DNA of 63,733 bases, filler included, from Stramenopiles sp. TOSAG23-2 (Eukaryota), in NCBI GenBank assembly GCA_900128395.1. It is 2 parts of 2 records of this genome, joined end to end, with 100 filler letters (N's around TTAATTAATTAA, not from the genome) between each part and the next. Parts side by side here need not be neighbours in the genome. Positions count along the whole stretch, not along the records: positions 31,938 to 63,733 come from LT649368.1; 1 more part is not named here. One strand, 5' to 3'. Positions 6,162 through 45,926 of the stretch are shown one piece after another; position 1 is the first letter of the stretch, and each line of letters begins with the position of its first letter. A program made the translations under genes and the position numbers. The notes beneath the pieces were generated by a model that was given only the letters and a program-made list of their open reading frames with translations, searched no databases and was not told where the DNA came from.

Positions 6162-6941
6162 GTAGATGATTATGGAAATACTGCTTTACACTTTGCTGCT
6201 CAATTTAATGAGAAAAATACGGATGTGGTTGAGCTACTGTTGAAACATCCATCTATGACCATAGATATTATAAATAAGCAAAATAAAGGTGGGTATACTG
6301 CGCTAGATTATGCGTATGCCAATGAAACAAAAATAAAATTTGACATGATCAAAATTATCAGTAACCACAATGGTAAAAGAGCACTTGAATTAGAAAAAGA
6401 GAAGAAGAAACTTGATGTGGAAGAAGATTTTATGATGAGATCCAATGAAGAATTATTAAATGAATTACATGCATTGAAAACATTGACTGTAAAAGAATTT
6501 GATATAGTGAAGAAACGAGATGCAAAAGAAAAAAGTCCTTTTATTAAAACGAACAATGAATTGCAATTAGAATTGAAAGAATCTAGAGAATTAGGGGCTT
6601 TTATTTACGCTGCAAAGGAGGAAGATATTAAAACGATGCAAGAATTGCTATATAAAGGTGCCAAAATATCGCAAACAACACGCAATTTAAAACGATGGAA
6701 TGCATTACATTACGCAGCTGCATGCAATAAAAGAAATGTAAACACTGTTAAATTTTTGTTAAACCATCCAGATATTCTGGATTTCGAAGTGATCAATAAA
6801 CAAGCAGAAGATGATGGAATGACACCACTAGACGTTGCCATCTCATTTAATAAAAGCATTATTAACCATGATATTATTCGGACTTTGAAAAAAAAAGGTT
6901 GTAAAACAAGTAAAGAGTTACAATCGTTACCTGAAAGTTGA
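5964..6941 (+). CDS. ankyrin-repeat protein
   Basis: GNTALHFAAQ, GYTALDYA, WNALHYAAA, GMTPLDVA ankyrin motifs. Confidence 0.85.
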   Translation: MIRTKYKVLVPLVEYYEKEDAKKLEENNASIDRMIRTKYKVLVPLVEYYEKEDAKKLEENNASIDRVDDYGNTALHFAAQFNEKNTDVVELLLKHPSMTIDIINKQNKGGYTALDYAYANETKIKFDMIKIISNHNGKRALELEKEKKKLDVEEDFMMRSNEELLNELHALKTLTVKEFDIVKKRDAKEKSPFIKTNNELQLELKESRELGAFIYAAKEEDIKTMQELLYKGAKISQTTRNLKRWNALHYAAACNKRNVNTVKFLLNHPDILDFEVINKQAEDDGMTPLDVAISFNKSIINHDIIRTLKKKGCKTSKELQSLPES

Positions 6942-39235: not shown

Positions 39236-40966
39236 ATGGAACAAAAAGTAGAGTTAAAGACAACAGCATTTCAAGAAAATAGTAATGAGAAAAGGAAGTT
39301 TCAAAACTTGAACTCATGGTCTAATCGTCATAACCACAACCGCCACAGTATGATCTTTGGTACGGAAAGACCTGAATTACTAAATGACGAACATATTTCA
39401 AAAAAAATTGTGCAACAATTAATTGGCATTATTTTTGGAATGATAACAATTATATTGTACATATCAAGTTGGTTTTTTGAAGCACAAGAAATTGAATTAT
39501 ATATCGCTTGTTCTGTATTTGGAGCGATAACTGTCTTATGTTTTATAATAATTTTTACCAATAATATTTCGATCGTTGTTACAAAACGATTATTCAAGGA
39601 GTCAAATGTAATTATCATTATAATATTGTGTTTTACCAATTTAATCCTTGATATTGTTGCAGATGTGAATGGTGCCATAGATATCTTTTTAGGCATTATT
39701 TATTTAATGTGTACTATTAATTTTGTATTTTTAGATGCAGTGAAAATAAAAAATCGATATTTTGTAATAATTGTTGGGTTGTGTAATGTATTATTAAATA
39801 TCGTGAATATTTATGGAAATACTCTTGGAAACAGCAATTATCACAAAGTACTATTTACTTATACGATTCAAGGAGAGTCTCATTCTATCATGAAACGTTC
39901 CACTAAACGTAGTTTGTACCTTCAAATTTTGTTATTTATAAGCAGTGGTGTATGGACAATGTTTAAAGATAAAAAGATGGAATTATTAATGTTTGCTACA
40001 AGTCACATTTATCGCGAAAGTGGCGATGGTTCAAAAAATAATGACTCTACCACTACTACTGGAGGTACTGACAATGACGATGATGATAATAATAATAGTA
40101 TCAATATTCATAATACAATAATAAAAAGTAAGAGAAGAAATGCAATAATATTAGGAGGGGAAATGGTTTTACTAGATAAAAACCACAGTTGGCGTACATA
40201 TTGGGGACAACGCGGTATCGGTATATTCGGTATTTTAGGCGTGTTATGTTTCATATGGTCGGATCTGGGAGAAGATGGAACAACATATGTTACATTGACA
40301 ATTTTTGCAGCTTTATTTGGTACGCTTGCTATTGCTTCTGTTGCATCGTTTTTTTATAAAAATATTTCATCAAAAATTGTACGATTGTTGTTAAAAGAAA
40401 CTAGTGTTGCAGTCATCCTATTCCTAGGATTTTGTAATTTAATGATTGATATATTTGTTCCTTCTACATCATTAAGTTGGATATTGGGAACTGTATATTT
40501 ATCTTGCAACGTTACGTTTTTGTTTTTAGATTCATTGAAAATGAGAACAAAAACATTTATTATTTGTATAGGTACCTTTTTCGTCGTAATTAATTTATAC
40601 AATTTGTATGAAGATACATTAGGAGATGCACATGTAGGCACAGTAATTTTTAAATACTCATTGCAAGGTAATGATTATACTATAATGAAACGTTCTGCAA
40701 AGCGAAATATTTATTCTTCAACATTATTATTCAGCGTAAAAAGTTTATATACTCTTGTATATGATAAAAAAATGGAATTGATGATGTTTGCTACAGGTAA
40801 GATTTATCTGCAAAGTGGAACATCATCAAAATATGTTGAACAGGAATCATTTGTCCGCAGCTTAAGTACAGAATCGAACCATTCAAGACATTCTAATAGT
40901 AATGATATTGGCAACAACAATAATAAGAAAAAGAATGCCAATGCCATTGGTCTGGTCGTTGTTTGA
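39236..40966 (+). CDS. multi-pass membrane protein made of two tandem copies of the domain in 3834..4790
   Basis: IMKRS.KR and DKKMEL.MFAT..IY each occur twice; many hydrophobic segments. Confidence 0.8.
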   Translation: MEQKVELKTTAFQENSNEKRKFQNLNSWSNRHNHNRHSMIFGTERPELLNDEHISKKIVQQLIGIIFGMITIILYISSWFFEAQEIELYIACSVFGAITVLCFIIIFTNNISIVVTKRLFKESNVIIIIILCFTNLILDIVADVNGAIDIFLGIIYLMCTINFVFLDAVKIKNRYFVIIVGLCNVLLNIVNIYGNTLGNSNYHKVLFTYTIQGESHSIMKRSTKRSLYLQILLFISSGVWTMFKDKKMELLMFATSHIYRESGDGSKNNDSTTTTGGTDNDDDDNNNSINIHNTIIKSKRRNAIILGGEMVLLDKNHSWRTYWGQRGIGIFGILGVLCFIWSDLGEDGTTYVTLTIFAALFGTLAIASVASFFYKNISSKIVRLLLKETSVAVILFLGFCNLMIDIFVPSTSLSWILGTVYLSCNVTFLFLDSLKMRTKTFIICIGTFFVVINLYNLYEDTLGDAHVGTVIFKYSLQGNDYTIMKRSAKRNIYSSTLLFSVKSLYTLVYDKKMELMMFATGKIYLQSGTSSKYVEQESFVRSLSTESNHSRHSNSNDIGNNNNKKKNANAIGLVVV

Positions 40967-41678
40967 TTTCTTCTCATTGTAATTACGTGTGCAACTTGTG
41001 TTTTAGTACTAGTTTAAATAATTCCAATAATTGTTAAATGTTAAGTAAAGTATTTTGTACATAAAAGTATTATATATAAGAACGTAAGGATGGAAAATTA
41101 AAAGTTAAATTGGATAATGACAACACAAAAACATTTAGATTGATTAAACCATGTGATTTACAACTTTATGAAGGAGTATCTCTTTCGTCTAACTCTGAAT
41201 CACAGACAGAGGAACAATCTTTTGAATACTAAATAATTTTTACTAAACTTTATAAAAAATCATTTTTGATTTAAGATGTTAATGAACGGGAGTAAAAGAA
41301 ATTTATATAATATATGAGTAAGAGAACATTTTATATATAAGAAAGAGTATAAAAAATATTTTTTACCAGCCAGCCAGGTAATAATTCTAATATATTATAT
41401 AATAGTTTCGAAAAAATATTATTATACCAGTAAAAAAAACATCTCACACCTTTTCACCCATATCGACTTTTTTTTAAACGATCTATGTGCACACGCAGCA
41501 ACATTCCTATATTACGAATAAATTTAAATTACTGCTTCTTTAAATATTTCTCGTGTTATATAAAAAGTATATATATATATATATATTTTAATGATTTTAA
41601 ATATATATATATAATATGCCGTTATATATATATGTACACATGTATCATATCAATTTGAGATTTAAACATTTTATAATA

Positions 41679-41756
41679 TTTACATTTCTTTTCATCAAAC
41701 ATATTTAAAAAATGATACTTTTTTTAAAAAATATGTCATCATTTATAGAGTGTAAA
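41679..41756 (-). promoter_or_regulatory. eukaryotic SECIS element in the 3' UTR of the selenoprotein gene
   Basis: minus strand TTTACA-CTCT-ATAA-ATGAT-GACATATTT-TTT-AAAAAAAGTATCATTTTTT-AAATATGTT-TGAT-GAAAAGAAA-TGTAAA: AUGAN/NGAN quartet, paired helix II, A-run 13 nt after ATGA, helix I. Confidence 0.8.
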
Positions 41757-41836
41757 CTATTTTCATTTAATTGATACTTCCAGAGGAAATCTAGATGAAG
41801 GGCTTATATATATATATATATATATATATATAGCTC

Positions 41837-42445
41837 TTACATTTTTGCCTTTTCTGTGACATATGGAAATGTATCTCGAGCCCATTTCGTAGGATATGTT
41901 GCCAGTCCTACGTGACCAAAATCATTACGTTTGATTGCTGCTAAAATATCTTCAGTCGGTGGTCGATAATATACAATCTTGCTATTTTTTTCACCTTTCC
42001 AAGTTGAAACTTTTCCATCCATGGATTCACGATGTTTGATATCACGCCATGTCCATTTGTAAATAATTGTTTTCGTAGTTAGATCTTCAACGACTAGACC
42101 TGGTTGGACCATATTATGACCTTTTCCAATACGGTCTTTTTCATTAGGATAGAAATGTCCCACGAGTTGTTCACGTTCCTCTGTTGTCTTAATTAATTCA
42201 ACACCTTTGGCAATATATTCATCAACTATTTTGAACTCTGGATCTGAATTCATTGTCACATAATTTAAAATACATTTTCTATCCTCCAACCATTTGGTAA
42301 TTGGACCATGTTGTGCAGTAACACCACGTACTTCGCAGCCAAGAGATTGAAATTGTTCTTTAAGAAATTCATACTCTAGCATTTGTACGCGTCAGTAAGG
42401 TCACCACGCGCCACGATAAAATATTGTGATTAAGTATTTCGACAT
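41837..42445 (-). CDS. peroxiredoxin-like (AhpC/TSA thioredoxin-fold) selenoprotein with UxxU motif, 202 aa
   Basis: ATG at 42445 is in frame with the ORF-track product and reads MSKYLITIFYRGAW(TGA)PY(TGA)RVQMLEY; both TGAs align to the Cys of FYRGxWCPYC; downstream SDP, QPGLVV, RPPTEDILAAI; SECIS follows. Confidence 0.85.
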
Positions 42446-43166
42446 CTCAATATTTTATTCTCCCGTATCTTTATATATATGTTTTTGAAGCACGTTGTAT
42501 ATTATTTAACTGTAATATATATGTGTGTGTGTATATATATTCAATTCTTCTATTTTTGTTATTATACATATAAGTTATTATGAGACTTTTGGTATATATA
42601 GTTGGGATATATATTTTACATGCAAGTTTTTGTTCTTCAAGTTGGTTGTTGGTTGTTCATGTGTGTTGGGCATAAGACACATCATGCTGATTTTAGATTT
42701 GAGATATTGCAGGCAAATAACACCAACACAACTCTATCCGCCTGCTATCTGTTTAAGTAGATAATATTCGTATAGTCTAACTATCCTATCAAATCTCAAC
42801 TGATGAGGGACTTTTGCTCGTTATTTTAAATGTACATCTGCGAGAGAGATGAATAAGATGGAAAAAGGAAAGACATCATGTGACTGTTAAAACGCCATGG
42901 AGTCAATTAGTATGGAAATACTGTAGTATTGGGAAACGGAAACATTATATATCCAACTGTTTTATATATGTAGACACAAAGAGAAACATATAATATCAAT
43001 AAACGAATATACTCAATAGAAACAAATAGATATCTGCTTCAACATTGTAAAATAATATATAAGAACAGATTTCCCCACTTATATATATATATACACACAT
43101 ACAGAATAAACAATATATACATCTATATATATTTACGTAAATATATAATATAATAACAATATCATC

Positions 43167-44923: not shown

Positions 44924-45926
44924 TCATCTAGCATTATTCAATTGATGTTGTTTATTTGTCAATGGTACATATCGTACACCCATAATAAATTGTTTTGTAA
45001 CTGTTTTACCATCTTCACTTTTATCAATTAAATATATTTCTTGTGAACCATTTTCTGGTCCAACTGGATTCAATTGATGTTGTTTATTTGTCAATGGTAC
45101 ATATCGTACACCCATAATAGATTGTTTTGTAACTGTTTTACCATCTTCACTTTTATCAATTAAATATATTTCTTGTGAACCATTTTCTGGTCCAACTGGT
45201 ATAATCATTCTACCACTAGGTGCTAATTGATCAATTAATGCTTCTGGTATATATGCTGCTGCAGCTCCAACATGCTATGTGTACGGGTTGATATTTTGTT
45301 AGAAATGATAAATTATAGCAATACGGTAGATATGTAGAAAATATTTTACATACAATTGCATCGTATGGTGCATTTGATGCTAATCCATCAAAACCACTAA
45401 CAACTTGAAAACTAACTTTACCTGATTTAATTAAATTAATATCATCATTGTTTGCATTTTCAATAGAAAATTTTACCAATTCATCAATATGTTCAATACC
45501 GAACGCTTTTCCATTTGGTGTCATCCGAGCTAAACAAGACGTTAAATACCCACTGCCAGAACCAACATCTAGTATATTGCTTTTATCTTTTATGTGCGGA
45601 GCAAGATATTCTAATGCATATGCATGCATATGTGGAGCTGAAATGGTAGCTCCGTATCCTAAATACAATGGATTATCATCATATGCTTGAGATTTTATTT
45701 CTTGTGGGACGTAGTGAGCACGGTCAGTCAATAACATTGCTTGCTCTCCAATTTTACTTTTCAATATATTATTCTTTACTAAATTTCCAACTAATTCTGC
45801 ATTGGTTTTTCCACCACAACGCCAAGACATGTCGTTGTATACGTATGATACTGGTAATGTACAGTGAACAAAGGAAAACAATAAGAATATTAATTGAATT
45901 GAAAACCAAAAAAGATTTTTTTTCAT
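44924..45926 (-). CDS. PCMT1: protein-L-isoaspartate O-methyltransferase; two exons (intron 45275-45353); C-terminal 44 aa duplicated
   Basis: GATISAPHMHAYALE, LDVGSGSGYLT, APYDAI|HVGAAA..P..LIDQLAPSGRMIIPVG, MGVRYVPLT; intron GTATGT...TTCTAAC...CATAG. Confidence 0.92.

Follow-up and report, generated by a model that had tools for sequence, protein, structure and literature searches.

Active centres with two selenocysteine (Sec, U) residues arranged as UxxU are rare, and to our knowledge the one in selenoprotein SelL is the sole example shown to form a natural diselenide. We know of no physiological reductant or substrate for these centres. Zebrafish SelL is reportedly cytosolic. In the available parts of three published accounts, SelL carries UxxU in a thioredoxin (Trx)-like, peroxiredoxin (Prx)-like fold, occurs in aquatic organisms, and has its two Sec residues two positions apart with a single Sec insertion sequence (SECIS) element (PMC3316567, PMC2397514, PMC2398784); one of them states that SelL forms a diselenide (PMC2397514). 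Here we describe a gene in a 63,733-nucleotide stretch of DNA (the window, filler included) from Stramenopiles sp. TOSAG23-2 (assembly GCA_900128395.1). Its product is most likely one of the rare two-Sec proteins, because its in-frame UGAs lie exactly at the two active-site cysteines of its relatives. To the reading that the gene encodes a UxxU Prx-like selenoprotein we assign a probability of about 0.8.

Several other described systems come close to this gene. SELENOL stands among the algal Trx-like selenoprotein families in the accessible text of PMC7539508. As far as the same text goes, AhpC_b of Thalassiosira oceanica is an AhpC/TSA-domain selenoprotein with a UxxC motif and one Sec, found in one diatom; its closest relatives are prokaryotic Cys forms and it lacks the TGGUT Prx motif (PMC7539508). 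In the parts of the sources at hand, bacterial UxxU and UxxC proteins are called 'Prx-like thiol:disulfide oxidoreductases' (PMC13188914), and Global Ocean Sampling (GOS) sequences include 'Prx-like 2' and UxxU Prx-like selenoproteins (PMC2398784). An Archaeplastida selenoprotein paper mentions none of SelL, UxxU, AhpC or peroxisomes.

On the minus strand of the window, the frame opened by the ATG at 42445 reads MSKYLITIFYRGAW-TGA-PY-TGA-RVQM and ends at the TAA at 41839-41837. The codons run TGG (42406-42404), TGA, CCT TAC, TGA, CGC GTA CAA and ATG (42382-42380), which puts UPYU at residues 15-18 of a predicted 202-residue product (motif W-U-P-Y-U; hereafter the query). Because an in-frame TAA lies three codons 5' of the ATG (42457-42455), this ATG is the sole possible unspliced start 5' of both TGAs. 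A preliminary description of this DNA had given the same frame extension and TGA coordinates, and both proved exact when the sequence and translation were re-read. It had also expected standard annotation to truncate the gene. The open reading frame (ORF) listing made with translation table 11 indeed begins it at 42382, giving a 181-aa form, and the public databases hold that form alone, as an unnamed protein without a Pfam domain. A single-protein search of a word-indexed protein database returned the query's own 181-aa cluster as its sole match. The features of the gene are as follows.

41837..42445, minus strand: full coding sequence (CDS), 202 codons plus TAA stop (sequence, translation, AhpC-TSA match, AlphaFold2 model)
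42443..42445, minus strand: proposed true start ATG (upstream in-frame TAA; equally short N-termini in the Cys-form homologues P0013, P0031 and P0036)
42401..42403, minus strand: first in-frame TGA, residue 15, next base C (aligned to the first Cys of CxxC)
42392..42394, minus strand: second in-frame TGA, residue 18, next base C (aligned to the second Cys of CxxC)
42380..42382, minus strand: Met22, start of the shortened 181-aa ORF (table-11 ORF listing and public database entries)
41840..41848, minus strand: C-terminal tripeptide A-K-M, resembling a type 1 peroxisomal targeting signal (PTS1) (translation; C-termini of the family)
41682..41757, minus strand: candidate type-II SECIS in the 3' untranslated region (UTR) (folds, strict pattern, identical in contig L001)

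For the protein analyses both TGAs were translated as Cys, and the resulting 202-aa product is P0001. It matches Pfam AhpC-TSA (PF00578) over residues 3-81 with 41.7 bits (E 1.3e-10) against a cut-off of 26. The 181-aa ORF alone scores 13.6 bits (E 0.068), under the cut-off, which is passed only with the 28 bits that the 21 upstream codons contribute. The consensus in a 60-sequence alignment (A5) is FYRGxWCPYC; the query has FYRGAWUPYU at residues 9-18, with the TGAs on the two Cys of the consensus. P0013, a Cys-form homologue that begins MTTLTIFYRGAWCPVCRAW, aligns from query residue 6 (BLASTP 2e-21). The Pfam match, A5, P0013 and the structural model agree in setting both TGAs on the CxxC of FYRGxWCPYC, as had been claimed from the sequence at the outset. 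The Pfam alignment begins at profile position 26, and a missing N-terminal exon was considered and rejected: the N-termini of P0013, P0031 and P0036 are equally short, and confidence in the model is high from residue 1 onward.

TGA is otherwise an ordinary stop in this DNA. The window holds 29 ATG-started ORFs of at least 200 aa, together 14,457 codons with 181 TGT or TGC Cys codons, and their stops are 19 TAA, eight TGA (among them the ORF ends at 6941, 14297, 19016 and 20848) and two TAG. Read-through of the eight terminating TGAs would extend the ORFs by 3-18 codons only, and the ORFs of 1868, 1494 and 1160 aa have no TGA inside. That TGA is not reassigned here, a point made in the preliminary description, is upheld by these counts. 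The base after the eight terminating TGAs is A, A, T, G, T, T, A and T, never C, in a small sample; both in-frame TGAs of the gene, unlike all eight, precede C. Among the TAA/TAG-delimited frames of the window that contain TGA, judged by eye, we found no convincing second gene interrupted by TGA.

The two TGAs are also present in independent DNA. A scan of metagenome contigs with alignment A3 gave 119 pattern matches, of which one was a relative (L001); alignment A2 was too divergent. L001 is 98% identical to the window, has both TGAs and differs from it at five positions of the CDS, all third codon positions (three synonymous, two not). Its 3' hairpin is identical to that of the window. The 90% cluster of the query has members recorded on 92, 39 and 29 contigs, and related clusters contain sequences from metatranscriptome catalogues (P0007, P0152). 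Viral contigs gave no relative in 107 pattern matches, and all nine of the DNA-pattern matches there were short chance ORFs.

The candidate SECIS is a hairpin about 95 nt 3' of the TAA stop. Its helix I has 7 bp (41757-41751 with 41688-41682), followed by a 5' core AUGA (41742-41739) and a 3' core UGAU (41697-41694). Next to the AUGA come U.U and then G.U (41737/41698), and helix II has eight Watson-Crick pairs, ACAUAUUU (41736-41729) with AAAUAUGU (41706-41699). Above it are a UUUA(A) bulge near 41728-41724, an A6/U6 mini-stem and a 6-nt loop. We take this layout to be that of a type-II eukaryotic SECIS; the fold has -12.2 kcal/mol with the quartet held open. A strict SECIS pattern ([AG]UGA; a helix II with no fewer than 9 of 10 pairs; AA after another 10-15 nt; GA; span 35-95 nt) has one match on both strands of the 63.7 kb, and it lies on the gene's strand within its 870-nt 3' region. 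Any match to this pattern arose in 37 of 2000 dinucleotide shuffles of that region. Microsatellites, (TA)n and (CA)n, flank the gene (41800-41836, about 41575-41620 and 42520-42560); the (TA)n directly 3' of the stop codon is 8 nt shorter in L001 and gives rise to weak, spurious microRNA-family matches in Rfam.

Protein databases were surveyed for relatives. HMMER, run in full against 1.84 billion representatives, returned 74 matches at E up to 1e-3; the word-indexed database, searched with a profile, returned 17. None of the 20 close homologue clusters reaches over the redox motif, their starts lying 2-10 residues past the position of the second TGA. Sixteen representatives of 90% clusters (P0002, P0005, P0006, P0008, P0010, P0019 and P0180-P0189) begin at a Met aligned to Met22, most of them with MQEF[ED]A. 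P0045 begins two residues past U18, and P0003, P0023 and P0024 begin near residue 28. The simplest reading of these predicted starts is that all of the close clade has a stop codon in frame where the second Sec lies, or close to it. The more distant forms P0013, P0025, P0031, P0035, P0036, P0042 and P0047 all retain the motif; P0025 has SxxC and the other six are Cys forms. The preliminary description had looked to homologues for Cys or Sec at both sites, and in these seven the motif is kept, with the Ser of P0025 at the first site.

In a quick maximum-likelihood tree of 79 rows, from which L066 (not Prx-like), L086 (over 330 aa), multi-domain matches and short fragments were left out, the query forms a clade with seven truncated homologues (SH-aLRT 88). 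This clade is nested in one of 15 with the seven Cys/Ser forms (SH-aLRT 96). Named members of the wider clade come from a Picozoa single-cell genome, Amoebidium, an MMETSP transcriptome and marine Rhodobacteraceae. The close homologues are all stored as unnamed or 'hypothetical' proteins, and Pfam finds no domain in the three tested. Marine metagenomes, metatranscriptomes, the Picozoa single-cell genome and other sources contribute at least 20 homologue clusters, which sit truncated in the databases. Since they are stored in this form and lack a Pfam domain, selenium use by small marine eukaryotes would be under-counted.

An AlphaFold2 model built on the 60-sequence alignment has a mean predicted local distance difference test score (pLDDT) of 87.3 and a predicted TM-score (pTM) of 0.86. 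The first, central beta strand is made of residues 4-9 (pLDDT 96); of the two Sec positions, U15 caps the N-terminus of helix 16-27 and U18 is in its first turn. The nearest solved folds found by Foldseek are BCP/PrxQ-type peroxiredoxins (3hjp, 5enu, 5epf; TM-score normalised to target up to 0.66). The best sequence-profile matches in the PDB are 2ywn, 2cx3 and 3hjp, and the nearest types are BCP and ResA. W-U-P-Y-U corresponds to the WCxxC of Trx-like oxidoreductases. Relative to the PxxxTxxC of peroxiredoxins, R11 takes the Pro position, U15 the Thr position and U18 the position of the peroxidatic Cys, and a near-invariant Q114-P115 is found where peroxiredoxins carry Arg. The classical peroxiredoxin site (PxxxTxxC and a conserved Arg) is therefore absent. 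What the query does have is typical of CxxC-type Prx-like proteins: FYRGxWCPxC, the second Cys at the peroxidatic position, and neither the Prx Thr nor the Arg. Those proteins make up what is presumably the CDD family 'PRX_like2'. Q114-P115 resembles the cis-Pro loop of ResA/TlpA-type oxidoreductases. The earlier assignment of the redox motif to AhpC/TSA Prx-like proteins stood, with a shift of emphasis: the site is of the CxxC, cis-Pro thiol-disulfide oxidoreductase type and not a classical peroxidase site, Thr being replaced by Sec and Arg by Q-P.

We propose that a single type-II SECIS hairpin, about 95 nt 3' of the stop, directs Sec insertion at the two UGA-C codons, and that U15 and U18 are placed as in Trx-like CxxC enzymes. 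The Sec pair would cycle between diselenol and diselenide, which would make the product a (seleno)thiol-disulfide oxidoreductase or an enzyme that reduces peroxides. Because Sec is at the Prx Thr position and Q-P at the Arg position, a diselenol/diselenide centre of the ResA/TlpA/'Prx-like 2' type appears favoured over a classical peroxidase; reduction of peroxide by Sec18, with Sec15 resolving, would be the other conceivable chemistry. The enzyme would probably be imported into peroxisomes by means of its C-terminal AKM. Sec insertion and the diselenide, like the reaction catalysed and the placement in peroxisomes, are what we infer rather than observations.

The PTS1 consensus tripeptide is [SAC][KRH][LM], and the C-terminal AKM of the query fits it. 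Among 14 complete C-termini of the close family, eight fit [SA][KR][LM] (AKM, SKL, and AKL and ARL three times each). In the model the tail (residues 198-202) is disordered, with pLDDT below 50. Peroxisomal import is thus a reasonable prediction for the query's subgroup, and the PTS1-like tail suggests a selenoenzyme acting in peroxisomes. Within the limited collection of literature searched, the matches listed include no peroxisomal selenoprotein, nor did we find there a UxxU Prx-like protein described as having a PTS1. It is possible, and we suggest it tentatively, that the gene is the founding member of a protist family of peroxisome-targeted diselenide (UxxU) oxidoreductases, distinct in its evolution from both animal SelL and the UxxU Prx-like proteins of bacteria. 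Such a protist UxxU family would have been invisible so far because its database entries are all cut off at the second UGA and lack a domain. If this is true, the product would be the first selenoprotein assigned to peroxisomes and would represent an independent origin of a rare double-Sec redox centre.

Some of our results weigh against a Sec-containing, peroxisomal product. The strict SECIS pattern was written after the candidate had been seen, so its counts are indicative only. A looser pattern matches 32 places in the window, and being too permissive it was replaced by the strict one. With Rfam 15, neither 41000-42500 nor a 101-nt stretch round the hairpin matched a SECIS family at E up to 10, the stability of the hairpin is no better than that of shuffles (z = -0.31), and the window has no tRNA gene. 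For the divergent homologues the upstream stop would follow solely from predicted protein starts, which do not fix the number of TGAs. Of the 14 C-termini, six are off the classical PTS1 (TKL, TSL, and ASL and AAL twice each).

These points have to be set beside the other ways in which the gene could be read. Translation could start at Met22, as it does in every gene caller's prediction, giving a 181-aa protein without the redox motif and leaving the 21 upstream codons as a decayed remnant, or the 5' UTR, of a former CxxC enzyme. A Met at this place is present in 16 homologue clusters; this is in part ascertainment, however, as P0003, P0023, P0024 and P0045, which lack it, begin elsewhere. The upstream codons are intact and in frame and hold 28 bits of family signal, the sole two defects in them are TGAs exactly at both Cys codons, and the 3' UTR contains a unique SECIS-like hairpin. 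A product from residue 22 would also be without part of the fold, because residues 4-9 form its first, central strand. We consider this start unlikely.

Sense decoding of the UGAs by some other means is harder still to accept. UGA-C is a weak terminator, and both in-frame TGAs precede C while none of the eight terminating ones does, so near-cognate tRNAs for Cys, Trp or Arg might read through them in a leaky context with no Sec involved. Two such events in succession would, however, give a very low yield, and at the two catalytic positions, which the TGAs occupy, no residue other than Cys or Sec would function. The 3' UTR has a SECIS-like hairpin, and the two-TGA motif recurs in bacterial selenoproteins and, in the available part of PMC3316567, in SelL. 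We regard read-through of this kind as very unlikely. A recent pseudogene, mistakes in sequencing or assembly, or a variant code in which TGA is read as sense have nothing to recommend them beyond the in-frame stops themselves, and we give them hardly any credence. L001 has identical TGAs and substitutions at third codon positions only, members of the gene's own cluster are on 92, 39 and 29 contigs, and the related clusters include the metatranscriptome sequences P0007 and P0152; a variant code is at odds with the TGAs that end eight of the 29 long ORFs and with the TGA-free ORFs of 1868, 1494 and 1160 aa. A UxxU Prx-like selenoprotein is the reading that we retain.

The window is AT-rich (about 30% GC), gene-dense, largely unspliced nuclear DNA, and the host is a flagellated marine microbial eukaryote. 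Neighbouring genes code for radial spoke protein 3, protein-L-isoaspartate methyltransferase (PCMT), an FAH-family hydrolase, Ham1/ITPase, a THUMP protein and the proteasome subunit Rpn3. The PCMT ORF (45231-45926, minus strand) turns non-homologous after about residue 196 (region 44924-45926), and a second ORF piece at about 45208-45104 encodes a typical PCMT C-terminus (RMIIPVGPENG...). Because this C-terminus is in a separate downstream ORF piece, the gene probably has a short intron, which if real would show splicing in the host. The selenoprotein gene converges with a 576-aa ORF (39236-40966, plus strand) that has no Pfam match and is made up of two similar halves, each with multiple membrane passes, e.g. 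KRSTKRSLYLQILLF and KRSAKRNIYSSTLLF, each then followed by KKMEL(L/M)MFAT. As a compact intron-free protist gene with a simple 3' UTR hairpin, the selenoprotein gene offers a tractable second example of UxxU. With it one could ask how a single SECIS manages two UGAs that lie three codons apart, and what role a diselenide plays in vivo.

We also examined how common the motif is among prokaryotes. FYRGxW-TGA-xx-TGA was searched in 185,579 prokaryotic species genomes (GTDB), giving 101 matches, 36 of which have at least 60 open downstream codons. All but one of the 36 open genes are Prx-like, and they come from many phyla. Prx-like examples include L010:5040-5591, L024:7067-7582 and L032:390-1316 (loci L002-L102). 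A tight bacterial clade of 18 with FYRGPWUPKUQVQL spans Acidobacteriota, Myxococcota, SAR324, Binatia, Latescibacterota and others. In Thermodesulfobacteriota bacterium B35 one 56-codon frame with FYRGPW-TGA-HR-TGA is found at six places (L003, L015, L021, L026, L072 and L097); this seems to be a repeated element whose match to the pattern is fortuitous, and not a Prx-like gene. NCBIfam NF040769 ('SelL-related redox protein') places all 10 bacterial UxxU representatives below its 120-bit cut-off (best 69.2). Several UxxU subfamilies seem to be without a curated model, because all 10 of those tested miss this cut-off.

The bacterial UxxU Prx-like genes have the same local motif as the query, FYRGxW-U-xx-U, and otherwise the similarity is weak (14.5-24.5 bits). 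None of the 34 bacterial UxxU rows in the quick tree falls in the query's SH-aLRT 96 clade, and they form at least five separate groups. The comparison in a tree with bacterial Prx-like selenoproteins, suggested in the preliminary description, thus set the query family apart from all 34. The bacterial proteins also have the usual N-terminal Prx hairpin and no PTS1, unlike the query. They would rely on a bacterial SECIS, which sits inside the coding region.

With SelL of fish, invertebrates and marine bacteria, the query shares UxxU in a Trx-like fold. It differs from SelL, known here from descriptions only, in its very short N-terminus and in a C-terminal extension of about 60 residues with a PTS1-like end. 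The query scores 18.1 bits against the 120-bit cut-off of NF040769, the only SelL proxy compared, and none of its named relatives is called SelL. AhpC_b, compared by description, shares a CxxC-type motif and the AhpC/TSA domain with the query and has a single Sec where the query has two; it may be related to the query family. Classical peroxiredoxins (BCP/PrxQ, AhpC; Prx TxxU) are the best structural matches, and the query has U18 at their peroxidatic-Cys position; their catalytic Pro, Thr and Arg are replaced in it. The UxxU Prx-like design is already known from SelL and from the bacterial proteins, and the clade of the query is not a new kind.

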